A stretch of 64,000 nucleotides of DNA from Verrucomicrobia bacterium UBA6982 (GTDB lineage Bacteria; Verrucomicrobiota; Kiritimatiellia; RFP12; UBA3636), in contig DJYI01000139.1 of the NCBI GenBank assembly GCA_002448475.1, positions 19,732 through 83,731 of the forward strand. Reading direction: 5' to 3'. A program made the translations under genes and the position numbers. This document shows, piece by piece, positions 6,013 through 38,826 of the stretch. How positions within the stretch are numbered: position 1 is the first letter of the stretch; each line of letters starts with the position of its first letter. Below the pieces are notes generated by a model, which did not search any database, was not told the DNA's origin, and saw only the letters and a list, made by a program, of their open reading frames with translations.

Positions 6013-6019
6013 TGCGGCC

Positions 6020-15412: not shown

Positions 15413-16060
15413 ATGCGGATGTTCGCCGACGCAATCTCGGCGGTAGGGCTTCGCGGTGCGACGATTCTCGACGTCGGCGGAACGCGCGCCTACTGGGAAA
15501 ACTGGGCGCACATGCTCCCGCCCGGCGCCGTCGCTCGGATCGATGTCGTGAACCTGCCGGGACAGATGGGCGATCTTGCGGGTCGGACGCTCGAAATCGC
15601 AGGACTCCCTGTTCGCTTCATTGCTGCGAACTTACTCGACGGCCAATTCCACGCCCTCGACGCGCGCTACGACGTCGTCCACTGCATTTCCGTTATTGAG
15701 CACGTCGGCGACGCCGCCGCGCAGCGCACCTTCGCGGACGCCCTCCGCCGCCTCGGCGACCGTCTCTGGGTCCAGACCCCGGCCAAGGAGTTTCCCCTCG
15801 AAGCGCACTTCCGCCTCCCCTTCTTCGCCTGGTGGCCCCTCCCCCTTCGTGCCTTCTTCAACTGGCGCTTCCGCCTTGGCGTCATGCCCCGCCACCGCTC
15901 CTGGCCCGAGGCCGTCGCCTTCTGCCGCTCCACCCGCCTCCTCACCCGCCGCGCCTTCTCCCGACTCTTCCCCTCCTGCAGCCTCTGGACCGAGCGCGTC
16001 CTCCTCCTCCCCAAGTGCTACGTCGCATCGTCCATTGCCCCATCCGCCCGAATCTGCTAG
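15413..16060 (+). CDS. Class I SAM-dependent methyltransferase
   Basis: ILDVGGTRAYWE is motif I (like LDVGCG), and ...YDVVHCISVIEHV... is the post-II motif typical of MT_11/12. The start is the ATG at 15413 (MRMFADAIS). The upstream 44 codons of the ORF are unlikely to be translated. Confidence 0.6.
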   Translation: MRMFADAISAVGLRGATILDVGGTRAYWENWAHMLPPGAVARIDVVNLPGQMGDLAGRTLEIAGLPVRFIAANLLDGQFHALDARYDVVHCISVIEHVGDAAAQRTFADALRRLGDRLWVQTPAKEFPLEAHFRLPFFAWWPLPLRAFFNWRFRLGVMPRHRSWPEAVAFCRSTRLLTRRAFSRLFPSCSLWTERVLLLPKCYVASSIAPSARIC

Positions 16061-16307
16061 AATCACGCCCCGTGACGCCAATTTCCACCAGCAAGTTCAC
16101 GTTTTCCGACCCTTATCGGGAGGGATGCATCCATGTCGACTCGCGCCACCCCTTCTCCGGCGCCCGCGTCATCCTCGTCGCCGCCGGCTTCTCCCCCAAG
16201 ACCCGCAATCTCGTCCGCCCGAAAAGCGAGACCATGGCATGCCCCTGCGACATTCCGGCTTCGCCCTGCGGATGCTCCATGGTGCCAAGTCTGATCGAAT
16301 AAACTGC

Positions 16308-23462: not shown

Positions 23463-24587
23463 GTGAACGCTCCTTCGCACTCTGCCGTCGCTTTTCATCG
23501 GAATTCGAGTCTCGAACTCCTCCGAATCCTCTGCATCCTGCTGATCCTCGCCAATCACTATTCGGTTCTCGGCGGCATTCCGGCACGGGGTTGGCGGGAA
23601 CTGACATGGGGATACTTCTTCGTCCAGTCCATTGGCATGTTCGGTCGAACCGCTTGTTCCGTTTTCGTCCTAATCTCGGGATACTACCTTTCGACGGGAG
23701 TCAAACCTGGCCATTGGAAGAAAGTCATCCCGCTTGCTGCGGAAGCCGTTTTCTATTCTTCCGTCGCCTTCTTCGTTCTATGCGCGCTTGGGTTTCGGAT
23801 GTTCTCGCCGAAAGGGCTCATCCTTGCGTTTGTTCCGTTTTTCGGGCGCAACATCTGGTTTGTGACGAACTATCTCGTCTTCTGGCTCGCCATCCCGTTT
23901 TTGAACCCGATGGTCGCCTCATTGACAAAACGCCAGCACGAAGGGATTCTCGCGTTCTTCGGGGTGTTCTGGTGCATTCTGCCGACGTTCTCGAGCAAAG
24001 CGCTTTCCTTCGGGTGGACCTTCGGAGAACTGGATTTCTTTCTCGTCATGTATCTCGTCGGCGCCTACCTGCGCCGGTTCTCCCCCCATGAACGCTACCG
24101 GAACCGCTGGAACGGCTTTGCCGCGCTCCTGTTCTTCGTCCTCATGATCCTGTCCGTGGCTGGAATGGACTTGCTCGGACTATGGCTTAGGAAGGATGCA
24201 CTCGTCTCCCATGCCGTCCATTTCCTTTCGTTCTATTCCGTCCTTTCCGTCCCTCTCGCCGTGTTCTCGTTCTGTTTTTTCTCCCGGCTCTCGTTTTTGA
24301 ACCACACCGTTGACCGGATCGCGAAATCGGTTCTCGGCATCTACCTTCTCCACATGCAGCTCACACATCTCGATGGCAGAAGATATCCCCGAATGCCCTT
24401 CATGTCGACGACCCGTATCTCCACGCCTTCGCCAAAATCTCCCTGCTGTTTTTCTTCTGTCTTGCCGTTGATTTGTGTCGCCATTATACCGTGGGACATT
24501 TGGGACGAATTCTCTTGCGCAAGTTTCGATTGGCCTGACTATTTCCCGCAACAACCGACATGGACAACTCCCACGACAACAGAATAG
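23463..24587 (+). CDS. Acyltransferase family 3 membrane O-acyltransferase (paralog 2)
   Basis: ...FHRNSSLELLRILCILLILANHYS... and a multi-TM body. There is no in-frame ATG after the upstream stop. Candidate starts are the GTG at 23463 or the TTG at 23451. Confidence 0.6.
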   Translation: MNAPSHSAVAFHRNSSLELLRILCILLILANHYSVLGGIPARGWRELTWGYFFVQSIGMFGRTACSVFVLISGYYLSTGVKPGHWKKVIPLAAEAVFYSSVAFFVLCALGFRMFSPKGLILAFVPFFGRNIWFVTNYLVFWLAIPFLNPMVASLTKRQHEGILAFFGVFWCILPTFSSKALSFGWTFGELDFFLVMYLVGAYLRRFSPHERYRNRWNGFAALLFFVLMILSVAGMDLLGLWLRKDALVSHAVHFLSFYSVLSVPLAVFSFCFFSRLSFLNHTVDRIAKSVLGIYLLHMQLTHLDGRRYPRMPFMSTTRISTPSPKSPCCFSSVLPLICVAIIPWDIWDEFSCASFDWPDYFPQQPTWTTPTTTE

Positions 24588-26440
24588 ACTTCTGGGCAGA
24601 AACCTGGATCGGAGCCGTAGTGCTGATCCTCCTCTCCTGTTCGTTCTTCAGCATCTTTTCCCATCTTCGCTTCGGCGCCTGGATCGGCGGCGGCGCCGCC
24701 ATTCTTTGGACCGCTCTCCGCATCCGCCGCGCTGGCCGTTCCGTCTTCTCCGTTCCCCGCTTCCACGGAATCGGCTGGGGCATTCCGGTTCTGTTCGCGC
24801 TTTGCCTCATTTCGCTCCTGGCCGGACCGCACTGCTTCCTCGACACCTACAGCTACCGCCTTCCGCAGATGTTCTTCTGGCTACAGGAGGGCCATCCATG
24901 GTCCGTGCCTGGGGTGGACATGCGCATCAACCAGATGCCCCACGTCTGGCCGATGCTCTCCGCCGCCTTCTACCTTCCCCTCGGCGAACGGGCCCTCGCG
25001 CTGCCCAACTTCATCGGACTGCTGTTTCTGTCCGCCCTGTTCCGCAAATGGGCCGCCCCAGCCGATGGCCCGAACCCGAAGTCCGACGCCATCGCCCTCG
25101 TCTTCCTCTCCGCGCCCATCTTCCTGATGGGAGCCTCGACGAACGACAATGTCGTCTGCTGCTGCGCCTTTCTCGCTCTTTCGTACCACTTTGCGGCCCG
25201 TCCCGAGACCTCTCTGAGGACCGTCGCCCTCTCCGCTCTCTCCTTTGCGCTCGCCTGCGGCATCAAGCCCCAGTATCTCGCCCTCGCCCCGGTCTGGGCC
25301 GCCTGGTTTTTCTTCGCCCCCTCCCGTCCGTGGCGGACGATCCGGCTCCGGCCGCTCCTCCTACTCGTCCCGCTGCTCGTCCTCTGCTCACCTGTCCCGA
25401 CCCTCGCCGTCAACCGGATCTGCTGGGGTAGTTTCACGCACCCCCGCGTGGAGGAGCGGAACGAGTCCGGGGAAAAGACGATCGCCGTCCCGTCGGAATC
25501 CGAAGCGGACGAGGCTGCGGCGACCGACGGCGAACGGGCAAAACCGTCTGGTGACCGCTTCCGCGGTGAACACGCCTTTTTCACGCTTGGCACGCAACTC
25601 TTCGCCCCCCCCTTCAACCCGCTCTTCGGGATCATGAACCGATGGGTCCAGTCCGGAGGCGATTTCGTCTCGCGGCAGTTCAAGAGAAACGGCATTCGGT
25701 TCCAGCCGCTCGTCATTCCCGAAGTGGCCTCGCTGGAACTGTTCGTTTCCTTCGCGCTCGTCCTCGGCTTGGCGCTCGCTCTCCGGCACCAGGAATTCCA
25801 TCCGGGATTTGTCCTCCCCGTCTTCGCCTTGACAGTTCTAGCTGTCATCTACACCAAAGGTGGCACCCTCGGCCGTTCCTTCTCCGGATTCTTTCTCCTC
25901 TTGTTCCCGGTAGCGATTCCTGCCCTCGCCCGGCTGCCGCGACGCCTCCTCTCCGCCTACTCCGGACTCTGCCTTCTCATTGGAGTCGCCGTCGTCGTCA
26001 CCGACCCGTCGCGTCCGTTGCTTCCTCTCCGTTTCCTTTCCACAAAACTCGCCAACCGCCCCGCGGTCGCCGCGAAACTCGCCGACTACTCCCACTTCTC
26101 CGAGCGACAATTCGCCACCCGTGCCCTTCTGGCCGACATCCCAGCGACCGTAAAAAAAATTGGCATCATCCTGGAGAAAAACTCCCCCTTCGCCGAAATC
26201 TGGCTTCAACGCCCCGGGGTTCACGTCGTTCCCTATGCAGCTCTTCCCGCCCCATCCCGACTCGTCCGTGACGACATCCGCTTTCTCTTCTTCAAGGCTT
26301 CTCATTCCTCGTCCCAGGGAGAACTGACGGACGCCCCCCTCTCCGCCAATTCAGGCATCAAGCTCTTTGCGACCCTCCCCTATGTCTCCTTCACGCACAA
26401 AGGGCCTGAACCATGGCATGTGCTGTATCGAGACCCATGA
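24560..26440 (+). CDS. Polytopic membrane protein (626 aa), candidate GT-C-type glycosyltransferase or polymer-modifying protein
   Basis: About 10-12 predicted TM segments at the N-terminus, with a loop ...LDTYSYRLPQMFFWLQEG... and a C-terminal soluble domain. The family was not recognised. Confidence 0.45.
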   Translation: MDNSHDNRIDFWAETWIGAVVLILLSCSFFSIFSHLRFGAWIGGGAAILWTALRIRRAGRSVFSVPRFHGIGWGIPVLFALCLISLLAGPHCFLDTYSYRLPQMFFWLQEGHPWSVPGVDMRINQMPHVWPMLSAAFYLPLGERALALPNFIGLLFLSALFRKWAAPADGPNPKSDAIALVFLSAPIFLMGASTNDNVVCCCAFLALSYHFAARPETSLRTVALSALSFALACGIKPQYLALAPVWAAWFFFAPSRPWRTIRLRPLLLLVPLLVLCSPVPTLAVNRICWGSFTHPRVEERNESGEKTIAVPSESEADEAAATDGERAKPSGDRFRGEHAFFTLGTQLFAPPFNPLFGIMNRWVQSGGDFVSRQFKRNGIRFQPLVIPEVASLELFVSFALVLGLALALRHQEFHPGFVLPVFALTVLAVIYTKGGTLGRSFSGFFLLLFPVAIPALARLPRRLLSAYSGLCLLIGVAVVVTDPSRPLLPLRFLSTKLANRPAVAAKLADYSHFSERQFATRALLADIPATVKKIGIILEKNSPFAEIWLQRPGVHVVPYAALPAPSRLVRDDIRFLFFKASHSSSQGELTDAPLSANSGIKLFATLPYVSFTHKGPEPWHVLYRDP

Positions 26441-26458
26441 AACCTGCCAAACGAAACA

Positions 26459-28246
26459 ATGAAACCAAAATTCACCCGCCCCTTTGTTTTTTCAATGGCG
26501 CTTCTTGTTGTTTGCGGCGTCCTGTTGTCTCTTTCAAGCTTCCGTGTTTCCGATTCGTTGCTCTGCTTTTCAATTCGCGCCGAACAGTTTTTCCATTTGC
26601 CATCAAACCGGGCTCCCGCCGGATTTCAGTTTTTGAGATTGCTCCGCGCTTCCATTTTTGCGATTCTGTCATGTCTTGTATTTTGGGCAACCCGCAAATC
26701 TTTGAATGAATCCGGACAAACATGCAACTGGCTGGCCAGAGCCATCATTTGCCTAGGTTTTTTCTTGCGATTTGATCTTTGGGCAACCAAGGACTTCTGG
26801 TGCGACACATGGGCGTTGAAGACCGCCATCCAAACGCATTCCGCACTTGAAATCCTGACCGGGCGGTTGGGATTCAACCAGGCGGCGCCTGTCGGTTTTT
26901 CGTTGCTCGAAAAGGCCGTTGGCGTTGTTTCCGGTTATTCCGGAACGGCGATGACTCTTCCGCTGTTGCTGGCCGGATGCGCGTCATTGGCGGCCTTGTC
27001 CCGCGTAACGGAGCGGTGCGGTTCGGTGCGCTGCAAAATGGTGTCGCTGGTCATGCTTTTCGTTTTTGCCGTGAACCCTTCTTTCGTGTATTACAGTGCG
27101 GAACTCAAGCCGTATGGCTTTGATCTGCTTGTTTCGGCACTCGCAGTCTTGCTTGTGATCGATTTCCAGAATGGAGAATCGAGCTGGAAGAAACTTGTCT
27201 GTTTTTCAGCTTTTGCGCCGTGGTTCTCCTTGCCTTCGTTTTTCGTCCTTTTTTCCCTTTATGCCGCATTGGCCTTTTTTTTCTTCTCGGATCACGCGCG
27301 GATTCGATGTCTGGTTCTCTGTGCGGCCATTTCAGGGGCATTGGCGATATTCCCGCTAATCCATGCATTCGCGACCATGCCGGCGGCCATGGACAATGTC
27401 CAAGACTTGTTCGCTCCGGTCACATGGTCCAAAGGAGCTCTTCTATGGTGGACGGGGCGGCTTCTTCATTTTTTCCGCGGTCCGGCATATTTCGGTTTCA
27501 CCTCATGGAGCCTGTTCTCTCCTTTTGCATTGCTGTCATTGATTCCCCTTGGATTGTTTTCGCTCGGGGTGTGGCAGCGAAGACGAGACCCCCTGGTTTG
27601 GATGTCGTTGCTTTGCATCGCTTTCACCTTTTTCGCATCGGCCTGTCACTATTGGAAGATCAATCCGGGTACAAGTTTGACCGGCGGACGCCTTATTCTC
27701 TTTTTGACTCCGTTCGCGTATCTGCCGCTTGCTAGCGGGTTGCACTGGATGGCCACGAAGAATAAAGCCGCCGGAGCCGCGACATGCGCTTTTGCCTTGG
27801 TTTCGGCTTGCTTGTGGTTTTTCCAGCAGACACCCATTTCCTGTCCCATGAACGACATAGCTACACGGGTTACCGTTCAACGAAAGCCGGGAGATATTAT
27901 TCTTTGCGACGAAATCATGCTGCTTGCTCTCATTTCCGAAAACGCCGAGCGGACAATCAAGGCGTCTGAGGACATCTTGATGGTGTATTCCAGCCCGTCA
28001 TATGATGACGTCGAGTTCGCCAGTCTGGACCATTATCTGCCACGACATCGAAGAAAACTGGATTCTGAACGAGAACACGTAGTTTCCCAAATGCTGTCTT
28101 TTTTTTCGGAGGGCGGGCATGCCAGTCTGCTCGTCTACCCGACGCACAAACGAAGTGCCGATATGGCGAATGGCCTTTCTGTGAACTTTTCGAACGACAT
28201 AATTGATGCAGTAATCCGCCCATGGGTCGCATTTGTCCGCCTTTAA
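26459..28246 (+). CDS. Polytopic membrane protein (595 aa) with the same architecture as the upstream gene, a probable paralog
   Basis: A multi-TM N-terminus with a ...DLWATKDFWCDTWALK... loop and a C-terminal soluble domain. It sits in a lower-GC segment. Confidence 0.45.
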   Translation: MKPKFTRPFVFSMALLVVCGVLLSLSSFRVSDSLLCFSIRAEQFFHLPSNRAPAGFQFLRLLRASIFAILSCLVFWATRKSLNESGQTCNWLARAIICLGFFLRFDLWATKDFWCDTWALKTAIQTHSALEILTGRLGFNQAAPVGFSLLEKAVGVVSGYSGTAMTLPLLLAGCASLAALSRVTERCGSVRCKMVSLVMLFVFAVNPSFVYYSAELKPYGFDLLVSALAVLLVIDFQNGESSWKKLVCFSAFAPWFSLPSFFVLFSLYAALAFFFFSDHARIRCLVLCAAISGALAIFPLIHAFATMPAAMDNVQDLFAPVTWSKGALLWWTGRLLHFFRGPAYFGFTSWSLFSPFALLSLIPLGLFSLGVWQRRRDPLVWMSLLCIAFTFFASACHYWKINPGTSLTGGRLILFLTPFAYLPLASGLHWMATKNKAAGAATCAFALVSACLWFFQQTPISCPMNDIATRVTVQRKPGDIILCDEIMLLALISENAERTIKASEDILMVYSSPSYDDVEFASLDHYLPRHRRKLDSEREHVVSQMLSFFSEGGHASLLVYPTHKRSADMANGLSVNFSNDIIDAVIRPWVAFVRL

Positions 28247-28295
28247 CCCCATTGCCATGATCACAAACCACGCGATGACTCCCGACAGAACCAAT

Positions 28296-29555
28296 ATGAA
28301 GGCGCCACGCATTTTGTGTTTCGGCGCCCATCCGTTTCCGACATCAATGCGCCCCGTCGGCTCTTACTTCGACGCCAGGCTTCTTTTCCGCATGACAGGC
28401 GGGAATCTCGGTAATTGCATAATTGGCGAATACGCTCGTAAAACGATTCGCGGACAGTTCACTGACATAACACATTTTCCAGGCCACCTTCCTTTCTCGG
28501 CTGAAGAAGCCAACGAGAGGTTCGATCATGTCTTGATTGTGGCCGCAAACTGGTTCACCTGCAATTGGCTGTCCGATTTTTCAAAAGAGATCAATTGGTT
28601 CCACAACCTTCGAATTCCCGTGACCGTCGTAGGCCTTGGGCAACAGTTGCCAAATGGAGCGGTCTCCCGCGATGATCGTATTCGTTTCGCGAAATCCGTC
28701 CCGGATAGTTTCGTTCGGTTGCTACGCGTCTGGCTCGACCATGGTCCGTCGATTGCCGTCAGAGGAGAGATCTCCCGCGAACTGCTTGCCCATGTCGGAA
28801 TCCGTGCGGTCATCCCGACCGGTTGCCCAACTTGGTTCGTCAACGGCGGCAACCAGCCGGATATCGTCACAAAGGACCATCTCGACCCCCACACCCGCAT
28901 CGCTATCCATGGAACCCTTCGGACAGCGGGAGAGATCTTTCGTCTTTCTTCGTCCCACCAGAACGCCGTTTATGTTATTCAATCGGAAATTCCATTCGTT
29001 CCGTTTTCGGGAAGGCACCCGCCTTCGGGCTGGCGGCTTCCCCTGTTTCTTCGCCACGCTTCCGGCCTGAAGCCGTCTATGATGTCCGGACGCGATCCGC
29101 TGTTTGTCCACTTCTCCCAACTTTCGGACTGGGAGGGTTTTCTTCGGTCCTGCGCATTCTCTTTCGGAAGAAGAATCCACGGAACAATTTGCGCCATCAA
29201 AAACGGCATCCCGGCCGTCATCGTACGGCACGACCAGAGAATCGCTGAGTTCGTCGATCTCTTCCGAATCCCTTCCGTGTCCTCCTCCGACCTGCAACGG
29301 CCCGAGTTCTCGTTGTCTTCGGCATACCAACATGCCGACTTCTCGGACATGAACCGCGCCTATCCCTCGCTTTTGGATCAGTATCAGACTTTCCTTCGGT
29401 CCCATGGTCTTTCGCCGGCATGTAGAACCATTCGGCAAGACCAAAAATCGGAAATCGACTATCCGGCGTTCAGATCCTTCGAGACAAACGTCTTTGAATG
29501 GAAATGGGAGCTGGGGCTAGTGAGGCAAAAAATCAGAAAGCGATTGTGGAGATGA
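28296..29555 (+). CDS. Polysaccharide pyruvyl transferase family protein (CsaB/WcaK-like), copy 1
   Basis: MKAPRILCFGAHPF...TGGNLGNCIIGEYA... follows the PS_pyruv_trans N-terminal pattern (GxGNxGD-like). The start is the ATG at 28296. Confidence 0.55.
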   Translation: MKAPRILCFGAHPFPTSMRPVGSYFDARLLFRMTGGNLGNCIIGEYARKTIRGQFTDITHFPGHLPFSAEEANERFDHVLIVAANWFTCNWLSDFSKEINWFHNLRIPVTVVGLGQQLPNGAVSRDDRIRFAKSVPDSFVRLLRVWLDHGPSIAVRGEISRELLAHVGIRAVIPTGCPTWFVNGGNQPDIVTKDHLDPHTRIAIHGTLRTAGEIFRLSSSHQNAVYVIQSEIPFVPFSGRHPPSGWRLPLFLRHASGLKPSMMSGRDPLFVHFSQLSDWEGFLRSCAFSFGRRIHGTICAIKNGIPAVIVRHDQRIAEFVDLFRIPSVSSSDLQRPEFSLSSAYQHADFSDMNRAYPSLLDQYQTFLRSHGLSPACRTIRQDQKSEIDYPAFRSFETNVFEWKWELGLVRQKIRKRLWR

Positions 29556-29626: not shown

Positions 29627-30022
29627 ATGAAAACAGGAATCACATTCGGGACATTCGACGTCTTCCACTACGGACATCTTCGAATACTGGAACGATCGCG
29701 CGAACTCTGCGACCGGCTGGTCGTCGGCATCTCCAGTGATGAACTCAATTTCTCGAAAAAAGGGAGAATGCCGTACTACAGCTTTGACGAAAGGTCCCGC
29801 ATCGTCGGTGCTCTCAAATGCGTCGACGAAGTGTTCAAGGAAGAATCTCTTGAACTCAAGGCAGAATACATCAAGCGGTTCAAAGCCGACGTCCTCGTTA
29901 TGGGCGACGATTGGAAAGGCAAGTTTGACTGGGTCATACCCTTGACAGGCTGCGCGGTTTTCTATCTTCCGCGGACACCTGCAATTTCAACAACGGCCAT
30001 TGTCGAAAAAATCCGAAATTGA
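29627..30022 (+). CDS. tagD: Glycerol-3-phosphate cytidylyltransferase (TagD-like)
   Basis: 131 aa, MKTGITFGTFDVFHYGHLRILERS..., carrying the HxGH nucleotidyltransferase motif, with TagD-like size and sequence. Confidence 0.85.
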   Translation: MKTGITFGTFDVFHYGHLRILERSRELCDRLVVGISSDELNFSKKGRMPYYSFDERSRIVGALKCVDEVFKEESLELKAEYIKRFKADVLVMGDDWKGKFDWVIPLTGCAVFYLPRTPAISTTAIVEKIRN

Positions 30023-30094
30023 CCTGAAACTCCCCACTCCAGACCACGGTAGCGCCACCTGCGGATTCTGTGTAACAACTCAAGTCACGCTGAT

Positions 30095-31651
30095 TTAGGC
30101 GGCAGACCGTCTCACCCTGAACAAACGACGAATCCACGCCACGGCGAATCGCCGTTCTTCGTTGTCAAGAACAAACAGTATCGACCCGGTAGCAAGGCTA
30201 GTCGTTGTCGCGAGGCCAACTGCCAAAATACGCCAGACGGACGCCGGCGCCGCGCCCTGCACGGCGAATCCGGCGAGAAAGGCGAGGACGACGACGGCAA
30301 GGAGCGGAGCCACGATCCGGAAACACCAATGCCGCAGGGACATCCCGCAAAGCCGCCAGCCGAAGATGGCCCGTTCCAGCGAGAGCAGCGAGTAGCTGAT
30401 GACGAACGACAGCCCGATGCCGAGAGCCCCCCAACCCGCCTTGACGAACGCATAGACGAAGACGAGCGTCGACAGGGATGTGATGCCCAGGACGAAATTG
30501 AAAAGCCCGATCCGACCCTTTGCGGCAACCATCAGATGCTGTCCGATTCCGAGCTTGTGGCAGATCAACGCACACAGCAGGCAACGGCAGAGCGTCGCCG
30601 TCCCGTCGGGCGGCGTCTCGAGCCAGATGCGGAGAACCTCATCGATCTCCACCACGAGCGGAACCGCGAAAAGGGCAGTGAGGAGCACGGCGAACTTTCC
30701 ACTCCGGAACGCCAGGGCAACGGCGCTGCCGCTATTCTTCGCCCCTTCGGCCGTCGTAACGGCCGGAGCCATCGCGCCGAGAAGCGCAGAGGTGAACGAC
30801 CCCGTATGTGCCGAAATGTGCAATGTGATGCTGTAGGACGCATTCATCGCGGGTCCGAAGAAACGGTTGATGATAAACGCGGTTCCGTTCTTGCGAGCGA
30901 TGTCCCCTCCGCAGCTGAACAACTCCCAGAACGCGTATCGGAAAAGGGGTAGGATCCGCGCGCGGTCGAACATCATGGACGGTCGAACTCGACAATCGCC
31001 GAATGTCCGCCAAGCGCGAAACATCTGGGCGAGCTGGACTGCGATTCCCGGAATCACCAGCATCATCGAATAGCAGACGAGTCGGTCTCCCTGCACGAAG
31101 AGCAGGCGGTACGCAAGCCCCAGCAGGAGCAGCGCCTGAAAAACACCCCAAAAGGCCAGTTCAGAAATGAGCTGTTGCGCCTTGTACATTGAGATGAATG
31201 GCACCGATGCAACCGTGCAGAACAAGCTTGCCATCGACAATCGAAACACCCAAATGCATGCATCAACTCGATCAGGCGGAATCACGAACCAATGGCGGAT
31301 GGCATAGGAGCCGACCGGATAGCCGATAGCGACTAGGACCGCAGGCAGGATGAGATGGATCGAGAGTGCCGCGTTGAACCACCGCTGAACATCTTCGCAT
31401 TCCTCACGCCAGCTTTTTACGCCCGACTTGCCGATCGCATATGCGAGAAACCGCGAGACAGCCAACCCTAGTACATTGTTGAAAACGGAAACGAAAGCGA
31501 TGAAACTTCCGACAAGCGCGAAAAGCCCCAAATCGCGCTCTCCGAGCGCACGAAACACCCATCTGCTCGTAAAGAGAGCGACAAACAGGACGAAAACGGA
31601 TCGCCCATAAGTCGTAATTGTGTTGACAATGATTCGCCGCGTTGCTGTCAT
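30095..31651 (-). CDS. wzx: Wzx-type polysaccharide/oligosaccharide flippase (MOP superfamily)
   Basis: 518 aa with about 14 TM segments, resembling the polysaccharide biosynthesis protein family. It is the last gene of the long minus-strand operon. Confidence 0.7.
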   Translation of the reverse strand: MTATRRIIVNTITTYGRSVFVLFVALFTSRWVFRALGERDLGLFALVGSFIAFVSVFNNVLGLAVSRFLAYAIGKSGVKSWREECEDVQRWFNAALSIHLILPAVLVAIGYPVGSYAIRHWFVIPPDRVDACIWVFRLSMASLFCTVASVPFISMYKAQQLISELAFWGVFQALLLLGLAYRLLFVQGDRLVCYSMMLVIPGIAVQLAQMFRAWRTFGDCRVRPSMMFDRARILPLFRYAFWELFSCGGDIARKNGTAFIINRFFGPAMNASYSITLHISAHTGSFTSALLGAMAPAVTTAEGAKNSGSAVALAFRSGKFAVLLTALFAVPLVVEIDEVLRIWLETPPDGTATLCRCLLCALICHKLGIGQHLMVAAKGRIGLFNFVLGITSLSTLVFVYAFVKAGWGALGIGLSFVISYSLLSLERAIFGWRLCGMSLRHWCFRIVAPLLAVVVLAFLAGFAVQGAAPASVWRILAVGLATTTSLATGSILFVLDNEERRFAVAWIRRLFRVRRSAA

Positions 31652-32979
31652 CGATGTTCGATTGTATGTCTGTTCACACGCATTTGGGATGAAATGGCCA
31701 CAGATACTCTTTCAGCAATCAACTCGAGATGACGCCCAGATTCAATCATTCGAGAAAAAACAAGGAGCTCATCGCGAATTCCCTCTCCGTCGAGAGGATA
31801 AAAGTACCGACGATTGTCAGCCGGATTTTCAAACCGAATTTCAAAATAGTCCGTCTTCCACCATGGTGCCGGCACCACTATGTACCCTTTCGTTCCGGCA
31901 ATGACCAGTTCTCCTTCCGACTTGACGCCTTTCGCCACTGTGGCCGACCCAACAGCCGTAGGGTAAACGAAATCCACTTTTGAAAACACATCGAAATCTT
32001 TCGTGCCAGACGCAAGAAAAGAAGTTTCACATCTGTCTTTCCAATCTGTCCCAAGAATTTGGAAAATGGGAAGCAATGCCGTTGGCCCCCATGCCGTACG
32101 ACTGTTCCATTGTGAACCAGCCATCGTCTTGATTCCACTCGGCATCAAACTTGTACAGGTTGCAGAAACGGACACGACACTGCCGATCTTCCCGGATTTT
32201 AAGAGTAGCAGCAACCTGTTATATGCTGTCGAATACGCCGTTTTGATTGCGTCCATTAGCACCAGTCCGCTTTCCTTTGCCAAAGCGAACAACCTTTGGC
32301 AAGACATTTCGTCCAGGGCAACGGGCGACTCAACAAGGACATGCTTTCCTTTGCGAAAAGCCTGCTCAATGCAAACAGCATGATGCCGAGGATGATTTGC
32401 CAAATAGATGGCATCACAATTATCGAGCACTTGTTGATAGTCTTGAACAAGTTGAACACCGTCCTTTTGCGCCGCATTGACAATGTCATTGTGACTTGTT
32501 AGCGCAACCGAAACGGACAATCCGTCAACGAAAGAACTCTCCGCAAATAGTTTGGCTACTATATTTCCGTCTCCGATGAGACCAAGCCGACAAGACTGCC
32601 GTTTTTCTCGAATTACCGTAGAAGAAACCCCTTCCGTTCTCGGAAGATAAATCACGTCGCAGTATTCTTTCAAGTAGTCGAATTTGCCAGTCCAATCAGA
32701 GCCTAAAACGAAGATATCAATTCCAAGTCGTCGAATGTCATCGATTTTTTGTCCCTCGTATTCTTCTACCAGAATTTCATCGGCGAGGCCAAGACGTTGA
32801 ACGCCCTCAATGCGTTCCACAAGGGACTGCCGCGCATTGATTTTTCCGCGAGTCCGATCATAATTGTCGGAAGTCACTCCAACAATGAGGTAGTCGCCAA
32901 GAGCCTTTGCCCGTTCCAACAGCCGTCTATGGCCATAATGAAGAAGGTCGAATGTTCCGTATGTGATTACTTTTTTCAT
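31648..32979 (-). CDS. Bifunctional TagD-like cytidylyltransferase / Gfo-Idh-MocA NAD(P) oxidoreductase fusion, a candidate CDP-alditol (or CDP-glycerol-derived) synthase
   Basis: The N-terminal 130 aa read MKKVITYGTFDLLHYGHRRLLERAKALGDYLIVGVTSD... and are TagD-like with HxGH. The C-terminal ~300 aa start ...CRLGLIGDGNIVAKLFAE... (a Rossmann GxGxxG, Gfo/Idh/MocA-type). It overlaps the wzx start as ATGA. It lies in a low-GC segment. Confidence 0.7.
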   Translation of the reverse strand: MKKVITYGTFDLLHYGHRRLLERAKALGDYLIVGVTSDNYDRTRGKINARQSLVERIEGVQRLGLADEILVEEYEGQKIDDIRRLGIDIFVLGSDWTGKFDYLKEYCDVIYLPRTEGVSSTVIREKRQSCRLGLIGDGNIVAKLFAESSFVDGLSVSVALTSHNDIVNAAQKDGVQLVQDYQQVLDNCDAIYLANHPRHHAVCIEQAFRKGKHVLVESPVALDEMSCQRLFALAKESGLVLMDAIKTAYSTAYNRLLLLLKSGKIGSVVSVSATCTSLMPSGIKTMAGSQWNSRTAWGPTALLPIFQILGTDWKDRCETSFLASGTKDFDVFSKVDFVYPTAVGSATVAKGVKSEGELVIAGTKGYIVVPAPWWKTDYFEIRFENPADNRRYFYPLDGEGIRDELLVFSRMIESGRHLELIAERVSVAISSQMRVNRHTIEHR

Positions 32980-32986: not shown

Positions 32987-34027
32987 CTACCTTCCTCCGA
33001 ACAGGACGGCGGATGTTTTCGGCATGGTTCTTTTCAACAGTTCCGCAATGGCGAGGGAAACGGCGAACGCGAAGACGGCGACACCCAGATACGCCACCGT
33101 GCTTCTTCCGGGATGCAAATACGCCTTGACGGGGAGAAGAACGAATTTGTGGACAAGGTAAACGCCGAACGAACTGGAAACAAGCCACTCGGGCCATCGA
33201 CTGTCGCCCATCAGGCCCCAAACGCCGTACAGGGTGAACGGAACGCACAGGAAGCCGAGATGCTCCGCCGCCGGAAGCCCCTTCAAGACGAAGAATGCCC
33301 TGAATACAGCCAGACCGATTCCGACAGTCAGCGAAACGACAGGGGGGGGGGGCTGAAATCCACGATTCCTTTCTGTAGCGCAAGGCCGAGCGAAAAAAAA
33401 GAACAGGCCCAGCACAGGAAAGATTCCGACTCGGGCGAATTCTTCCCATTGCCCCGCGTTCGGCAACGGCCAAAACGGACAGACCGCAGCATAAACGACG
33501 AACAAAAGCAGCAGAAACCATCCTCGGAATTTCTTCAGGCACCAGACGAATGCCGGAGACAAGACCACCAGGATGAACAGCGCCCGTACATACCACAGCG
33601 GAGTCAGATAGGGGCATCGAGTGGGCCACAGACCGATTTGCCTCAACGTCGGAAACGTGAACGACACGGTTCTTCCGTGGAGGAGCGAATGGGCGTTCTT
33701 CCAGAGGAAATTCTCCAGCCAGAACAGCGCATTCCAGAGGACAAAGGGAACGAGAAGCGTTCGGACACGTTTGCCTACGGCTTTCCGGTATCCCTTCCCT
33801 TGCAGACTACGCCCCACCATGTAGCCGGACACGGTGAAGAAGAACGGGACTGCGATCTGCGTCACGCCGTTTTCAAGGATTTCCTCCAGCCACCAGCCGG
33901 TCGTTCCGCGCCCGAAATGCGGACGGCAATGGATGATCACCACGAGGAATGCGCATAAAATCCCCATGTTCCTGATTTTGCGGCTCGCCGCCTCGGTCAA
34001 TGTTCCGCGTTCATTCATTCCTAACAT
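32987..34027 (-). CDS. Acyltransferase family 3 membrane O-acyltransferase (paralog 3); carries the poly-C(11) and T8 homopolymers
   Basis: ...[19 protein letters not shown]... is the AT3 N-terminal signature, followed by a multi-TM body. Its 5' end overlaps the aminotransferase 3' end by 8-17 nt. Confidence 0.7.
33342..33352. repeat. Homopolymeric G(11) on the plus strand, which is C(11) on the coding strand and encodes QPPPP inside the acyltransferase-3 gene
   Basis: Counted directly: a-ggggggggggg-c at 33341-33353. A second T8 run on the coding strand (A8 on plus, 33393-33400) lies 40 nt away in the same gene. Confidence 0.9.
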
Positions 34028-35111
34028 ATCCCAAAACGGCCTTCAAGGCGTTGACGAGCGAATCATAATCCGCCTCTGTAAGGCATCCCATGTGTCCGAC
34101 TCGGAACACTTTGTCTTTCAAATCCCCGCCGTTGGGGCAAATCCAGATGCCGTGTTCGTTCTTGAGTTTGAGGAAGATGTCGAATGCGGACATGCCGTTC
34201 GTAGGGTGGAGCGGCGTCACGGCGTTGCTCAGTCTTTCGCTGACGATTTCAAGAGGCAGGTCCGCGATCTTCGAACGGAAGTATACCGCCATCCTCTTCG
34301 CTTTTGCGACCTCTGCGGCGACACCACCTGCCGCATCAATCGCCTTCAACCGCGCATGGATCTGCAACAGCGTCCCGACGGCGGGCGTGAACGGCGTCTG
34401 CCCCCTCACTTGATTCGCAAGAGCGTCTTTCAGGTCGAAGTAAAGGCACTTCGGGTCGTTCCTGGTGACCCGTTCCAGTGCGCGTGGAGAAAGGACGATG
34501 ACGCTCACCCCCGGAGGACACGCTAGGGCCTTCTGCGATCCGGTAATCATGACGTCCGCGCCCAGCGCCGCCATGTCGAAGTCGTCGCACAGGAACGAGC
34601 TGATGTTGTCGACGATCAAAAGCAGGTCGTTTTCCTTGCAAAAATCAGAAATCAGACGCATGTCGTAGTGTACGCCCGTGCTGGTCTCGTGCTTGTTGAC
34701 CAAAAAGGCCGAATAGGCGCTTTTGCCTTCTCCGCGCCTCCGCGTCTCCGCGTTGGACAAATCGTCTATTGTCAGCGCTTTTCCGGTCTCCAGTTTGATT
34801 TCGTCGTGCGGGATGCCGTGGATTTCGCAGATTTTGCAAAAACGGGCGCCAAAACTCCCGCCATTGACGACCAAAGCCCGGTCCTCCGGCGTGAGCAGGT
34901 TCATCGCGGCCGCTTCCATGGAGGCCGTGCCGGACCCCGTGATGAAGACAGCCCGCGACCCTTCGGGGGCGCCGGCGAACTTCAGCATCAGCCGTTCGTT
35001 TTCCAGCATGACGGAGGAAAACTCCGCCGTTCGGAAATAGGGAACCTGTTCGGCCCCGATGGCAAGGACTTCTCCCGGAGACTGGACCGGACCGACGGTG
35101 AAATTGATCAT
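34011..35111 (-). CDS. Class V aminotransferase (AGXT/PhnW/serine-pyruvate aminotransferase family), PLP-dependent
   Basis: [16 protein letters not shown]... has the TPGP-like start, and ...[18 protein letters not shown]... is the family consensus. The ATG at 35111 forms an ATGA overlap with the upstream stop. The ORF's 149 upstream codons overlap the upstream gene and are not expected to be translated. Confidence 0.7.
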
Positions 35112-36814
35112 GGCTTCGATTCCTCTGCAAGGGCTGCGGAAACCTTCTTTTCCAGGTCGCGATAGACGGACAGGCAGAACGGACCGTCCTCGGCCATGTC
35201 CGTGAACACTTCGAGCAGCACCGCGCCTTCCGGTCCTCGGGCGAATTCGGGAAGAACCTTCGAAAGGCTCTTTTCGTCCGTCGCCGAAAGATATTTGAAA
35301 CCGCATTCTTCCGCCCAGGCCCTGGCTGATCGGCCGTGACGGCATCCGATGTGGCGGTCTACCGTCGGCAGGGAATGGCTTGCTGGCGGGATGTGGAATT
35401 CCGCCGCCCCGCGGTTGTTGACCAGGAAAATCCTCACGTCTTTCGCGCGTTCCCGGATGGCCAGGGCGTTCATTCCGTAGAAGAAACTGAGATCGCCGAT
35501 AACGAGAAACGCCCGCCTTCCGCCGGCCACCGCCTGCCCAAGGAACGTTGGCAGGCATCCGTCGATGCCGAATGCGTTGATGTTTCCTGCGACGCGAACT
35601 CCTTCGGCCAGCGGGAAAAACTGCATCAGCCGAACGGCGTTGAGAATGCTCACATGGACGAGCGATTCCGGTGGAATCATGCTGGCCAGCGCCCCGACGG
35701 CGTAAAACTGCCCGTAGGGAAGCGGTGGCAGGACAGCGGCTTTTTCAAGGCGCTTCCAAAGTTTCAGGTAGCCACCCTCCCGCTTTCCGGTGGAGAGTTC
35801 GGACATCCGTTCGAGGAACGTTTCGACCTGGCACTCGAAAACCGCCGTCTGGCTCTTGAACACGTCACGGACAACGCCTTCCGGATCGATCGACCAATGC
35901 TCGAACTCTCCGCGGTGAGCCTTGAAAAGGTCCTTGATCCTTTCCTGGAAATTGGTGCCGAACGTGATGACGATGTCCGGAAGGACTTCTGCGAAGGTTT
36001 TTGACTTCAACCCCTTGCACACCGCCTCCGCCATGACGAACGTTTCCGTGCGGATGTTTGCGAAATGGTCCCCGAGAACAGGGGCGCGGAACCGTTTGCA
36101 GAAAGCTGACAGAGCGCGTTTTTCCGAAGCCGTCCAGCGGTCGCAGGCGCCGGCGATGACGAGGATGCGGCGCGCTTTTTCCAGGCGCTTCGCGAAATGG
36201 TTCCACGTCCGGCCGTCGTTTTCCCCAACCCAATCCACGAACCGATAGTGTATAGCTTTTCTCCCCTGCCCATCCGCGTTCCACATGGCGTTGGTGTCGC
36301 CGACCAGCGGAAGGTTGACATGGACGGGGCCTGGGCGGTGTCTCCGAAGTTCGACAAGGGCTTCGCTCAGCAATCGGGAAAAGTGCCAGACGTCATCTGT
36401 GTCTTTCAGGACGGGCAGACTCACGCTTTTTTTTGTGACAGACGCAAAAACGGCGGGTTGGTCGATCTTTTGCGTTTCCAGCTGATGGAGGACGTAGGGA
36501 CTTCGGTCCGCCGTGATCGCCAAGACGGGAACATGGGCGAAAAAGGCTTCCGTCATGCCGGACAGGTAGTTTGATGCGGCCGTTCCGCTCGTGCAGGACA
36601 ACCCGACAGGTTCGCCCAGTTCCTGAGCCAGCCCCAGTGCGAAGAAGGCTGCGCTGCGTTCATCCACCACGGAATGGCAGACGAAAAACGGATCGGACTC
36701 GACCGCCGTCACGAACGGGATGTTCCGCATGCCCGGAGACAGCACCAGATGGCGGACCCGGTAGTGCTTCAACGCTGAAACGAGGATGTCGATGGCAAGG
36801 GTGTTTGATGTCAT
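35108..36814 (-). CDS. MenD-family ThDP-dependent enzyme (SEPHCHC-synthase-like), possibly recruited to a non-menaquinone role
   Basis: The N-domain [16 protein letters not shown]...[13 protein letters not shown]...[12 protein letters not shown]...[10 protein letters not shown] is closely collinear with E. coli MenD (VRHICIAPGSRSTPL...DERGLGHLALGLA...TSGTAVANL...LTADRPPEL). The C-terminal ThDP motif is ...[12 protein letters not shown]...[14 protein letters not shown]...[11 protein letters not shown]. Confidence 0.65.
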
Positions 36815-36826: not shown

Positions 36827-37726
36827 TCAAGTATTGCCAAAGGTAAAACGGCAATCGTCCTGCGTAAGATTACCGCAGCCGGCCGTCACGTAAAGGATGG
36901 ATCCAAGGACCATTCTGCCAAGCGACGATACGAGAACGACGGCGAGGTTCGCAACCTCGCTCTCCGCAATCAAGCGACCGCCCGGCATGCGAGGACGCGC
37001 AAATGATTTTCCTTTATTCGGTCCGAGAAAGGCTTCCGTCGCGGTGGGGCCAGGGGCGATGCCGTTCACGACGATTCCATATGGAGCAAGTGTTTTCGCC
37101 ATTCCAGGAACCAAGCCGCGCAATGCCCACTTCGCGAGATTGTAGGGGGAGTTTGCGGGACGCAGACTCGACGAAGAGCAGACGACGAGAATGTTTCGGT
37201 TCCCGCACTCGTCGTTCCGCGATATCCAGTCCTCTGCCGCACACTGAGAGAGAAAGTAGGCTCCGCGGAGGTTTGTTTCCATCACTTCGTCGAAATCTTC
37301 CGGCAATGTGCTGCCAAATCTGGCAAAATTGAGACTGCCGGCGTTGTTCACCAAAATGTCAATCCCGCGAAGGCCGCAACACGGGAGCGCATTCGCTTCC
37401 CTCCACTTGTCGCGAAACGACTCGACGCTTTTCATCTCCAATGCAATGCCGCAAACTCTATCTTCGGATGCGGATGTAGCACATTGCGCAAGTTCATCGA
37501 CGCGCCGATTCACGGCGTCACGGTTTCTTCCAGTAATGATGACGTTTCCGCCAGCCGACAATATGGCCTTTGCGGTCGCGAGACCGATTCCTCTGGTTCC
37601 ACCCGTGATCAAAGCGGTTCGCCCCGCCAGCAAATCGGAACGGAACGGTGAAATGCCATCGCCTTCAGGGAGGGGAATCGGCATCTGTTCCATCTCGTTC
37701 TCCGGGTTCATCGTGTCCGAGTCCAT
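36827..37726 (-). CDS. SDR-family short-chain dehydrogenase/reductase
   Basis: TGGTRGIGLA (the Rossmann TGxxxGIG motif), NNAG, ...SSSS... and YxxxK-like (PYNLAK). The ATG at 37726 overlaps the upstream stop. The track start at 37732 is a TTG. Confidence 0.75.
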   Translation of the reverse strand: MDSDTMNPENEMEQMPIPLPEGDGISPFRSDLLAGRTALITGGTRGIGLATAKAILSAGGNVIITGRNRDAVNRRVDELAQCATSASEDRVCGIALEMKSVESFRDKWREANALPCCGLRGIDILVNNAGSLNFARFGSTLPEDFDEVMETNLRGAYFLSQCAAEDWISRNDECGNRNILVVCSSSSLRPANSPYNLAKWALRGLVPGMAKTLAPYGIVVNGIAPGPTATEAFLGPNKGKSFARPRMPGGRLIAESEVANLAVVLVSSLGRMVLGSILYVTAGCGNLTQDDCRFTFGNT

Positions 37727-37728
37727 GT

Positions 37729-38826
37729 TCAAAGGCGGTTGAGTGATTCGGAAAGAAAAGCCCGGGACTCATTTCGGACGGCTTCGATCCGCCCGCAGAC
37801 TTCGGCAAAATCCGTCGGCGATTCGTACGCAAAGCCCGTTTCCGCTCTCGGGATGCCGATCCAATCGGCGAGTTCCTCCATTTTCGTATCGCACTGCTCC
37901 CGCGTGAAAACGGAGAACGGTCGCCGGTAGTGGATGGCGAAAATCATTCCGTGGTAGGAATTCGTCACCACGAACTCCGCTTCGCGCACCAGCCCGAGAA
38001 ACTCTTCCACGCCGGCGTCGTATCGCATCTCATGCCCCATTTCGGCATGCGACGCCCGGATGCTGATTTCCACGACCCGCCAGCCGTTCCGTTTTGCCAG
38101 ATCCGACGCGAATGCCGTCATGCGCGGATCGTCACGGCGGGAATAAAGCAACAGGAATGGTTCCTTCTTGTTTGGGGATTTCGCGATCAAGTCATAATCG
38201 GACCGGGCCAAAAGCAGCGTGGGATCGCACACGCGCCGGACGGGCACCTCCGTCGCCGTGCGGACCCGGTCCATCAAAGTCGTTTCCCGCAGACCGATTG
38301 CTTTGAAATTCCGCATTCTGGCGTCGAGAACGGGCAGCTGGTCCGGGCGGAAATGAGGTGTTCCGAAACTCGGCGCATAGGCGACGGACCGCCCCTGCAT
38401 CACGGCGTAATTGGCGTAGTATCCGTCGTCCATTCCGAACTCGTCCGGGCAGAAAATCGTGTCGCTCCCGCAAACGAAACCATCAAGGCCCTCACGTTTC
38501 ATGCAGTCGCCGAAATTCGCGGAGGTATATACGCCGACGGAACGAGGGCAGCATTCCCGGTAGAATCGGTCGAACTTGCCATAATTGACACGGATCGCCG
38601 GCATGGACGCCTCGACCATCCGGCGCGAGGCGTCATCCTTGTCCCACATGTTCCGGAACGGATCGAGCGGGTTCTTGTCCTTGAGGATGTCGGGGCAGTA
38701 ATCGATCAGGACGGGTTTGTTTCCCGTCTTTTCGATGGAACGACAAAGCGCCCAGCTCTGCAACGCCGATCCGTAGTTGGTGAAGTTGCAGTGGATGTTG
38801 TAGCTGATGACACCTAAACGTTTCAT
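37729..38826 (-). CDS. Polysaccharide pyruvyl transferase family protein, copy 2
   Basis: MKRLGVISYNIHCNFTNYGSALQSWAL... and ...VVTNSYHGMIFA... (like the TDSYHG motif) match the PS_pyruv_trans family. Confidence 0.55.
   Translation of the reverse strand: MKRLGVISYNIHCNFTNYGSALQSWALCRSIEKTGNKPVLIDYCPDILKDKNPLDPFRNMWDKDDASRRMVEASMPAIRVNYGKFDRFYRECCPRSVGVYTSANFGDCMKREGLDGFVCGSDTIFCPDEFGMDDGYYANYAVMQGRSVAYAPSFGTPHFRPDQLPVLDARMRNFKAIGLRETTLMDRVRTATEVPVRRVCDPTLLLARSDYDLIAKSPNKKEPFLLLYSRRDDPRMTAFASDLAKRNGWRVVEISIRASHAEMGHEMRYDAGVEEFLGLVREAEFVVTNSYHGMIFAIHYRRPFSVFTREQCDTKMEELADWIGIPRAETGFAYESPTDFAEVCGRIEAVRNESRAFLSESLNRL

Follow-up and report, generated by a model that had tools for sequence, protein, structure and literature searches.

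An aminotransferase-linked cytidylyltransferase module with a degenerate oxidoreductase-like domain in a polysaccharide locus of a Kiritimatiellia bacterium

In the 64,000-nucleotide stretch of the Verrucomicrobia bacterium UBA6982 genome analysed here (contig DJYI01000139.1, positions 19,732 to 83,731; referred to as the window), a 443-residue protein (31648-32979, minus strand; PF01467 and PF01408) combines a TagD-like cytidylyltransferase (CT) with a domain resembling the Gfo/Idh/MocA oxidoreductases. Comparisons across genomes reveal that this fusion is part of a conserved three-part module consisting of a pyridoxal phosphate (PLP)-dependent aminotransferase, here called AT5, a TagD-like CT and a CDP-alcohol phosphotransferase. 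An original prediction for this DNA, which had missed AT5, held it plausible that the glycan is decorated with polyol phosphates; CTs and LicD-family phosphotransferases do reside in one polysaccharide locus, but the conserved presence of AT5 points to an amine-bearing product and not to a plain polyol phosphate. It is thus fairly probable that the product is a CMP-activated phospho-alcohol derived from an aminotransferase reaction and not a CDP-alditol derived from a reductase, and we tentatively suggest that it might be CDP-serinol.

The aminotransferase AT5 and its genomic contexts

AT5 (34011-35111, minus strand, 366 residues) belongs to the class-V PLP aminotransferases (PF00266, E=1.9e-16, 60.5 bits with a cut-off of 21.5) and strongly matches the PDB entry 3F0H (E=1.5e-135), which was deposited merely as 'Aminotransferase' and which we take to be a structural-genomics entry from Eubacterium rectale. 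The PLP-lysine motif GSQK aligns with that of 3F0H and is invariant in the AT5 alignment. The closest named families are the L-aspartate-glyoxylate aminotransferase BhcA and the 2-aminoethylphosphonate (AEP) aminotransferase (PhnW-AepZ), both matched far below their cut-offs; for the AEP transaminase model TIGR03301, AT5 reaches 153.9 bits where 360.8 bits are required.

In all five independent contexts anchored on the fusion, an aminotransferase gene lies immediately upstream of it, this being AT5 in four cases and a HisC-like transaminase in the fifth (locus L010), and LicD genes are found alongside in each of them. In turn, a scan anchored on AT5, with one genome per species, returned 576 relatives, of which the best 80 were used for the locus counts. 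These 80 proteins are 62-80% identical to AT5 and stem from Kiritimatiellae, Fibrobacter, Prevotella/Segatella (including S. copri), Oscillospiraceae, Ruminococcaceae and Lachnospiraceae as well as from Akkermansia, Elusimicrobiaceae, Saccharibacteria and Bacilli, the nearest being encoded in metagenome-assembled genomes of Kiritimatiellae (79-80% identity). The fusion of CT and Gfo-like domain is present in 71 of the 80 loci, and in 64 no more than 300 bp separate it from AT5. With respect to the transferase, LicD is found in 50 loci and a TagF-like protein (Glyphos_transf) in 22, mostly from Prevotella/Segatella; at least one of the two is present in 66 loci and neither in 14, within the stretches retrieved. 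The tie between this CT family and CDP-alcohol phosphotransferases, which the original prediction had proposed for the window, is therefore a general one.

In the window, the likely transferase for the CDP-activated product of the module, as judged from its gene context, is the LicD-family protein encoded at 38823-39746 (minus strand; PF04991, E=2.4e-34, 119.9 bits) in the same operon as AT5 and the fusion. A second LicD-family gene (49118-50074, minus strand; E=1.2e-42, 147 bits) is found about 9 kb from the first, and both proteins score above the PF04991 gathering cut-off of 22.6 bits. Both had been recognised before, albeit with an end at 50014 for the second, which differs by the choice of start codon only. 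A phosphocholine-specific function, which had been named as a finding that would refute the prediction, is likewise without support; no lic-type kinase or transporter was seen.

AT5 is also encountered without the Gfo-like domain, namely in L014, L015, L017 and L018 together with a distinct CT of 152-159 residues and LicD, and in L027 together with a LicC-type nucleotidyltransferase and two LicD proteins. As AT5 thus occurs with a small CT or a LicC-type enzyme alone, the Gfo-like domain is dispensable to the AT5 module. Among 81 AT5 proteins from fusion contexts, 155 alignment columns show a conservation of at least 90%. In six proteins from Gfo-less contexts 150 of these columns are unchanged, and the other five differ in at least half of the six proteins, in all cases conservatively; the identity between the two groups is 66%, as compared to 67% within the fusion group. 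This suggests that the substrate of AT5 is most likely the same everywhere, and that it would have to be a single compound to which AT5 has access ahead of the CT reaction and without any help of the Gfo-like domain.

HisC naturally acts on imidazole-acetol phosphate, a ketone of the type R-CO-CH2-O-phosphate and thus a substituted dihydroxyacetone phosphate (DHAP). By analogy, the HisC-like transaminase that occupies the place of AT5 in L010 (TIGR01141, 248 bits; HisC structures, E=1e-36) favours a free phosphate ester similar to DHAP as the substrate of the module.

Beyond these core components, the neighbourhood of AT5 varies. A LicD-free arrangement, found in L051 (4091-12191) and in 21 other Prevotella/Segatella loci, comprises in this order an MsbA-like ABC exporter, an LpxL-like lipid A acyltransferase, the TagF-like transferase, AT5, the fusion and a DUF6056 membrane protein, and suggests the decoration of lipopolysaccharide or of a lipid-linked polymer rather than of a capsule. 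GNAT or hexapeptide acyltransferases lie beside AT5 modules in L017 (4355-10497), L018 (9558-11169), L027 (9071-9652) and L100 (11463-12185), in L017 together with an ATP-grasp ligase that recalls the serinol-phosphate amide ligase of Campylobacter jejuni; these neighbouring enzymes may N-acylate the amine that is introduced.

The fusion protein and its Gfo-like domain

Residues 1-126 of the fusion constitute the TagD-like CT (PF01467 at residues 5-125, E=7.1e-20; TagD in the PDB, E=6.8e-37) and residues 129-443 the Gfo/Idh/MocA-like domain, with PF01408 at residues 131-242 (E=1.1e-13, 52.3 bits with a cut-off of 24), so that the composition expected for the two halves was borne out. No variation of the two CT motifs, HxGH and RTxGxSxT, is seen throughout the family. 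In an AF2 model built on 70 homologues (mean pLDDT 84.1) and compared by Foldseek, the C-terminal half superposes, again as expected, on Gfo/Idh/MocA structures (3e9m, E=2e-22, TM 0.80 on the target; 4had; 3evn), further neighbours being the TDP-sugar 3-ketoreductase KijD10, the UDP-GlcNAc 3-dehydrogenase GnnA, and GenD2. The two-domain fold of this family with an N-terminal Rossmann domain and its GxxGxG loop (G133-x-x-G136-x-G138) is present, the third glycine being retained in just 36 of the 70 close homologues. The Pfam and structure matches of both CTs of the window, of the Gfo half and of both LicD proteins are far beyond chance.

Judged by its sequence, the fusion lacks two of the features that define Gfo/Idh/MocA enzymes competent for catalysis. 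The catalytic lysine of the E-K-P motif is absent from the window protein, which has E217-S218-P219 instead, and in the HMMER alignment K102 of KijD10 ('VLAEKPL') stands opposite S218 ('VLVESPV'). In addition, the second catalytic motif (Asp/Glu...His/Tyr) is missing, since the corresponding window segment NSRTAWGPT has Ala296 in place of the Glu and Thr300 in place of the Tyr. Among the 70 close homologues the lysine position is occupied by Ser in 68 and by Lys in none, the Glu position by Ala in 64, and the Tyr position by Thr or Ala. The same holds for 70 AT5-linked fusions from different species, none of which has the lysine (41 Ser, 16 Thr, 6 Pro, 5 Ala, 2 Leu), and only the 16 'ETP' proteins among them, from Fibrobacter and some Bacteroidales, retain the Glu, their second position being occupied by Tyr or Phe. 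In view of these replacements, the proposed analogy to TarJ/TarI or Bcs1, in which a reductase works together with a CT, is not supported.

At the same time, the Gfo-like domains of different phyla still share about 50% identity and many invariant charged residues, the invariant positions including K143, H200, H213, E217, K246, Y253, R255 and W297 as well as K353-S-E-G, W373-W-K, E380, R382 and G398-E-G-I-R. Since it is so strongly conserved the domain should do something, and it is probably functional in some way other than canonical hydride transfer, its role probably being one of binding or scaffolding or otherwise non-canonical.

Contrary to the notion that its architecture is unusual, the fusion has at least 8000 homologues in the database, the top 120 of which all have both domains and are about 57-70% identical; their source annotations are glycerol-3-phosphate or choline-phosphate cytidylyltransferase. 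The architecture is not rare and is widespread in gut and rumen bacteria of at least eight phyla.

A sister clade with intact catalytic residues

A search with the Gfo half alone against 1.84 billion representative proteins delineated a distinct subfamily with 142 representatives at E<=1e-30, which splits into two clades. In the sister clade of the window's protein, the lysine of E-K-P is retained together with a GGSxTELGSY motif, whose Glu and Tyr stand where other Gfo/Idh/MocA members have Asp/Glu and His/Tyr; all three residues are present in eight of nine aminotransferase-free relatives. Some of the sister-clade proteins (P0151-P0191) stand alone, others are joined to a CT or to GDPD, Metallophos and/or LicD domains, as in CT::Gfo::GDPD, LicD::Gfo::GDPD and Metallophos::CT::Gfo::GDPD, and their operons, e.g., CT - Gfo - GDPD::Metallophos - LicD in L096 (5292-9796), are devoid of an aminotransferase. 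Gammaproteobacteria and Campylobacterota, too, commonly have CT::Gfo fusions of the E-K-P type. A model of reductase plus CT probably applies to the sister clade and not to the window protein.

Two further arrangements were noted. In L098 (3619-7008) a sister-clade Gfo protein has a CT and a CDP-alcohol phosphatidyltransferase in its vicinity, an arrangement that may indicate a lipid head-group variant, and in L093-L095 (1645-8836) a CT::Gfo fusion with E-N-P is located by a flagellin gene and followed by a stand-alone E-K-P Gfo protein, LicD and GT2 genes, which may serve the phospho-alcohol modification of flagellin or of a surface glycan.

Proposed pathway and alternative routes

In the model put forward here, AT5 would transaminate a phospho-ketone of central metabolism, the likeliest being DHAP, to yield serinol phosphate; the N-terminal CT domain of the fusion would convert this with CTP to CDP-serinol; and LicD, or the TagF-like enzyme in Prevotella/Segatella, would move the amino-alcohol phosphate onto the glycan. 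The outcome would be a phosphodiester-linked zwitterionic substituent on a surface polysaccharide. For the first step there is a parallel in the capsule synthesis of C. jejuni, a pathway in which Cj1437 transaminates DHAP with L-Glu and which also employs (S)-serinol phosphate (PMC12096443). As stated, with AT5 acting on DHAP, the CT making CDP-serinol and LicD transferring to the glycan, the model is plausible, though somewhat more prone to need revision than to stand unchanged.

Several points weigh against it. For every member we infer the substrate from context only, and the order of the steps and the role of the Gfo-like domain are likewise inferred. In addition, the fused CT is as near to genuine TagD as is the small, stand-alone CT of the window described below (130 versus 120 bits), so that glycerol-3-phosphate is a possible substrate, and a GpsA-like gene beside the module in L005 would fit a start from this compound. 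The MenD paralogue and the SDR protein encoded upstream of AT5 in the window could supply a different carbonyl substrate, and given its strong conservation and the GxxGxG of the window protein the Gfo-like domain may still bind NAD(P) and catalyse something. Finally, neither CDP-serinol nor phosphodiester-linked serinol on a bacterial glycan was found to be reported in the literature searched.

A bolder version of the model, which must be regarded as rather doubtful, holds that in its gut and rumen carriers, among them Segatella copri, Faecalibacterium, Oscillospiraceae, Fibrobacter, Akkermansia and Kiritimatiellae, the module makes a new nucleotide, CDP-serinol or a related CDP-amino-alcohol, from DHAP and decorates capsules and other surface glycans with a zwitterionic amino-alcohol phosphate, the Gfo-like domain being a pseudo-oxidoreductase. 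By this account, and with the same reservation, the pseudo-oxidoreductase would descend from a dehydrogenase that was active in a CDP-glycerol-type pathway until a transaminase took over the processing of the carbonyl.

Among the alternatives, one that is unlikely but fits a number of the observations places the amination at the level of the nucleotide: the CT would make CDP-glycerol, the Gfo-like domain would oxidise its C2 to give CDP-dihydroxyacetone, and AT5 would convert this to CDP-serinol, following the logic of GnnA/GnnB or WbpB/WbpE on a CDP-polyol. Neighbouring genes for a Gfo-type dehydrogenase and an aminotransferase constitute the classic amino-sugar route, KijD10 and GnnA are structural neighbours of the domain, the fused CT is close to TagD, a GpsA-like gene adjoins the module in L005, and the sixteen 'ETP' fusions retain the Glu and Tyr/Phe positions together with the full GxxGxG. 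However, an oxidation by this domain is hard to reconcile with the lack of the catalytic lysine in all 70 fusions and the replacement of Glu and Tyr as well in the window's clade, and AT5 is found in Gfo-free loci with its conserved residues unchanged, while the HisC-like replacement in L010 favours a free phosphate ester and not a nucleotide-bound substrate.

Quite improbable for the window protein is the route assumed in the original prediction, namely that the Gfo half is an active reductase making glycerol phosphate or another alditol phosphate for the CT, which would then produce a CDP-alditol, the aminotransferase being unrelated. The domain architecture of the fusion would suit such a route, and the sister clade with its intact Lys, Glu and Tyr in operons of CT, Gfo, GDPD/Metallophos and LicD plausibly works in this way; the window protein, however, is missing all three catalytic residues, the linkage to an aminotransferase is near-universal in its clade, and E-K-P occurs in no AT5-linked fusion.

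A route to phosphoethanolamine has a similarly low probability. Here, the MenD paralogue of the window (35108-36814) would convert 3-phosphohydroxypyruvate to phosphoglycolaldehyde, AT5 would aminate the latter to phosphoethanolamine, and CDP-ethanolamine made by the CT would serve LicD as donor, in parallel to the AEP pathway and with a CT of the same family as eukaryotic ECT. In line with such a route, AEP aminotransferase is among the nearest named families of AT5 (154 bits, below the cut-off), the gene of the MenD paralogue lies directly upstream of AT5 in the window and in L100-L104, and ECT is a PDB match of both CTs. However, the MenD paralogue is present in none of the 80 AT5-anchored loci and is found without AT5 in L105; as it travels with the pyruvyl transferase and the SDR protein instead, most carriers of the module would have no source of phosphoglycolaldehyde. 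For the same reasons, the idea that the MenD paralogue and the SDR protein are obligatory parts of the module, supplying the carbonyl or removing a 2-oxoacid co-product, was rejected.

Least probable are a pneumococcal CDP-2-glycerol pathway of the Gtp1/Gtp2/Gtp3 and WchX type, whose gtp1/gtp2/gtp3/wchX annotations in serotype 23F (PMC3493582) resemble the sister-clade operon CT-Gfo-GDPD::Metallophos-LicD, and a true phosphonate (AEP) tailoring, of which LicD and a class-V aminotransferase are typical in the gene clusters (PMC6697681), because the window operon has neither a GDPD or Metallophos phosphotransferase nor a PEP mutase, gtp3 is annotated as a phosphotransferase and not as an aminotransferase (PMC3493582), and L013 has its own Ppd and AEP transaminase besides AT5.

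The locus L013 deserves separate mention, as a CT::PEP-mutase (phosphoenolpyruvate mutase) fusion encoded there had raised the possibility that AT5 itself is an AEP transaminase. A complete phosphonate module (1015-7019) resides immediately beside an AT5, small CT and LicD module, and consists of Ppd, the AEP transaminase, an amino-acid permease, an Fe-ADH and the Fom1-like CTP_transf_like::PEP-mutase fusion; in addition, AT5 is separated from its CT by the insertion of an AIPR (abortive-infection-type) gene. The Ppd (475 bits) and the true AEP transaminase (456 bits) are clear family members, the latter being only 23% identical to the AT5 of the same locus, and a tblastn search with the L013 PEP mutase (Ppm) domain was negative in the window and in 79 other loci. 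The candidate assignment of AT5 as an AEP transaminase was therefore dropped.

Comparison with known systems

In its logic, the module proposed here is closest to the decoration with AEP or phosphocholine, where an aminotransferase or kinase, a CT and LicD act together, and to the glycerol-phosphate chemistry of TagD and TagF. AEP tailoring (Rice et al. 2019, PMC6697681) involves an AEP transaminase, the cytidylyltransferase PntC and a LicD-type transferase, and thus shares with the module the formation of a small amino-phosph(on)ate by a class-V aminotransferase, its activation as a CMP or CDP derivative and its placement on a surface glycan by LicD. PhnW-AepZ is also among the best named profile matches of AT5, and L027 pairs AT5 with a LicC/PntC-type enzyme. 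The differences are that the window has neither PEP mutase nor phosphonopyruvate decarboxylase (Ppd), its thiamine diphosphate (ThDP) enzyme being MenD-like, that the CT of the module is TagD-type (PF01467) and not LicC-type, and that the substrate is presumably a phosphate ester and not a phosphonate.

With TagD systems, both CTs share the fold, HxGH and RTxGxSxT, as well as partners of the LicD or Glyphos_transf type, whereas the fused CT comes together with an aminotransferase and a Gfo-like domain, neither of which has a role in the synthesis of CDP-glycerol. TarI/TarJ and Bcs1 consist of an IspD-like CT with an MDR or SDR reductase. They resemble the fusion in that a CT is coupled, physically or genetically, to a protein of oxidoreductase fold for polyol-phosphate decoration; the window protein is of a different type and built from unrelated families, with a PF01467 CT in place of the IspD-type CT and a Gfo-like domain lacking the catalytic residues in place of an active reductase for ketose phosphates. 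For the window's clade the functional analogy therefore probably fails, and the likeness is one of architecture only.

The dehydrogenases GnnA, WbpB and GenD2 are active, with the catalytic residues of their family, and their partner aminotransferases are DegT-type. GnnA/GnnB, WbpB/WbpE and GenD2/GenS2 also pair a Gfo fold with an aminotransferase, and GnnA and GenD2 are structural neighbours of the model, but the window's clade is without catalytic residues and AT5 belongs to class V. In turn, Cj1437 of C. jejuni provides the likeness of DHAP transamination as the proposed first step of AT5, with the difference that serinol phosphate is there amide-linked to glucuronate by an ATP-dependent ligase and then dephosphorylated, instead of being CMP-activated and phosphodiester-linked (PMC12096443). 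No Campylobacter chains were found among the PDB sequence matches of AT5 at E<=1e-3.

In pneumococci, a CDP-2-glycerol pathway comprising Gtp1, Gtp2, Gtp3 and the LicD-type transferase WchX was reportedly described by Wang et al. in 2010. The composition of this set equals that of the sister clade (CT, E-K-P Gfo, GDPD/Metallophos and LicD), which, as compared by annotation only, may represent a larger family that includes the pneumococcal CDP-2-glycerol genes. The window differs from the pneumococcal set in that an aminotransferase takes the position of the phosphotransferase and that the catalytic residues are missing from the Gfo-like domain, and no GDPD, Metallophos or other phosphotransferase corresponding to Gtp3 was found in its operon. 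In the 23F locus, gtp1 is annotated as a dehydrogenase, gtp2 as a nucleotidyl transferase, gtp3 as a phosphotransferase and wchX as a glycerol phosphotransferase (PMC3493582; PMC1391919). An interpretation of the window protein as a Gtp2::Gtp1 fusion with Gtp3 as the aminotransferase was discarded, as gtp3 is a 'putative phosphotransferase' and the GDPD/Metallophos-linked sister clade fits better. A homology search seeded with a stand-alone Gfo protein of low G + C content (P0197) returned Proteobacteria and no Streptococcus.

The polysaccharide locus of the window

The fusion is the ninth gene of a tightly packed minus-strand operon of ten genes, which starts with a UDP-GlcNAc 2-epimerase (40920-42197) and a GT4 glycosyltransferase (39727-40923), continues after the first LicD gene as third gene with a polysaccharide pyruvyl transferase (37729-38826; PF04230, E=1.1e-29), an SDR oxidoreductase (36827-37732; PF13561 and PF00106) and the 568-residue MenD paralogue, followed directly by AT5 as seventh gene and a membrane acyltransferase of 346 residues (Acyl_transf_3, 32987-34027; PF01757, E=2.2e-37), and ends, after the fusion, with a multi-pass membrane protein of 518 residues (30095-31651). 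The acyltransferase separates AT5 from the fusion in the window's lineage only, the two being directly adjacent elsewhere. The 518-residue protein, whose gene overlaps the stop codon of the fusion by 4 bp and is positioned between the small CT and the fusion, has no family matches in Pfam or NCBIfam; a homologue with 32% identity adjoins the AT5 module in L015, and the protein is probably a flippase or another membrane component of the operon.

By its scores, the MenD paralogue is close to genuine MenD (TIGR00173, 253 bits with a cut-off of 244; PDB MenD, E=1e-43, with all top PDB matches being MenD), and its family has about 2700 database matches annotated as MenD. It is, however, located together with the pyruvyl transferase and the SDR protein far from any menaquinone genes. 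In the small sample of five loci available, a trio of pyruvyl transferase, MenD-like protein and SDR/epimerase recurs in four loci besides the window (L100, L103, L104 and L105), an SDR- or Epimerase-type gene lying beside the MenD paralogue also in L103-L105; the trio is usually found directly upstream of AT5 and the fusion, and without both in L105. The MenD paralogue, the SDR protein and the pyruvyl transferase are therefore a recurrent but separable side module. As the natural acceptor of MenD bears an enolpyruvyl ether, this trio may represent a new elaboration of a pyruvylated or enolpyruvylated glycan. Iron-sulfur proteins similar to FrhB/FdhB (F420 hydrogenase beta-like) were observed beside pyruvyl transferases in the window (15576-17624, plus strand), in L011 (5691-6923) and in L104 (12730-13710).

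The small CT, an open reading frame (ORF) of 131 codons at 29627-30022 on the plus strand (PF01467, E=8.6e-24; Bacillus subtilis TagD structure 1COZ, E=3.9e-34), exists along with the fusion where both had been predicted. It carries the motifs HYGH and RTPAISTT, the fused CT HYGH and RTEGVSST, so that both are TagD-type by their fold, the HxGH motif and the C-terminal RTxGISTT motif, with matches to TagD structures at E-values of about 1e-34 to 1e-37. The label 'canonical TagD' given to the small CT was nevertheless an overstatement, for with 129.6 bits it remains, like the fused CT with 111.7 bits, below the equivalog cut-off of 165.4 bits of the NCBIfam model for glycerol-3-phosphate cytidylyltransferase (TIGR01518). 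The small CT and the fused CT domain are 44% identical, and eukaryotic ECT is among the PDB matches of either.

Nor do the small CT and the fusion form one module, as had been assumed. The small CT is the final gene of a plus-strand unit convergent with the operon that holds the fusion, was detected only in L001-L004, all of the window's own lineage, and is part of a separate lineage-specific unit outside the conserved module. It probably makes CDP-glycerol and possibly supplies another transferase, perhaps the second LicD. Its unit consists of two large membrane ORFs, a second pyruvyl transferase (28233-29555) and the small CT itself; the two membrane proteins of 626 and 595 residues (24560-28246, plus strand) are conserved in L001-L003 and have no Pfam matches even at E=0.01.

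The polysaccharide island (about 26-51 kb) has a G + C content of 0.50-0.58 as compared to 0.62-0.67 in its flanks. This is consistent with acquisition by horizontal transfer and with the spread of AT5 and the fusion across phyla at 60-80% identity.

Significance of the module

No paper describing a module of LicD, CT, MocA and aminotransferase was found in the literature searched. The logic of activation and transfer is familiar, which does not hold for the coupling to an aminotransferase, for the degenerate oxidoreductase domain or for the probable product. With the product of the module defined, the fusion would clearly exemplify how an oxidoreductase domain shed its catalytic residues once a transaminase joined the pathway. 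The crystal structure 3F0H is without an assigned function.

With at least 8000 homologues of the fusion and an AT5 that is 62-80% identical across at least eight phyla, the module is abundant, and defining its product would allow thousands of genes mislabelled as 'glycerol-3-phosphate cytidylyltransferase', 'choline-phosphate cytidylyltransferase' or 'Gfo/Idh/MocA oxidoreductase' to be annotated correctly and might add a new activated donor to glycobiology. How bacterial surfaces are perceived by hosts and phages depends strongly on small charged substituents such as phosphocholine, aminoethylphosphonate, phosphoethanolamine and glycerol phosphate, and zwitterionic motifs that combine an amine with a phosphate, as would be installed by the module according to the model preferred here, are tied to immunomodulation.

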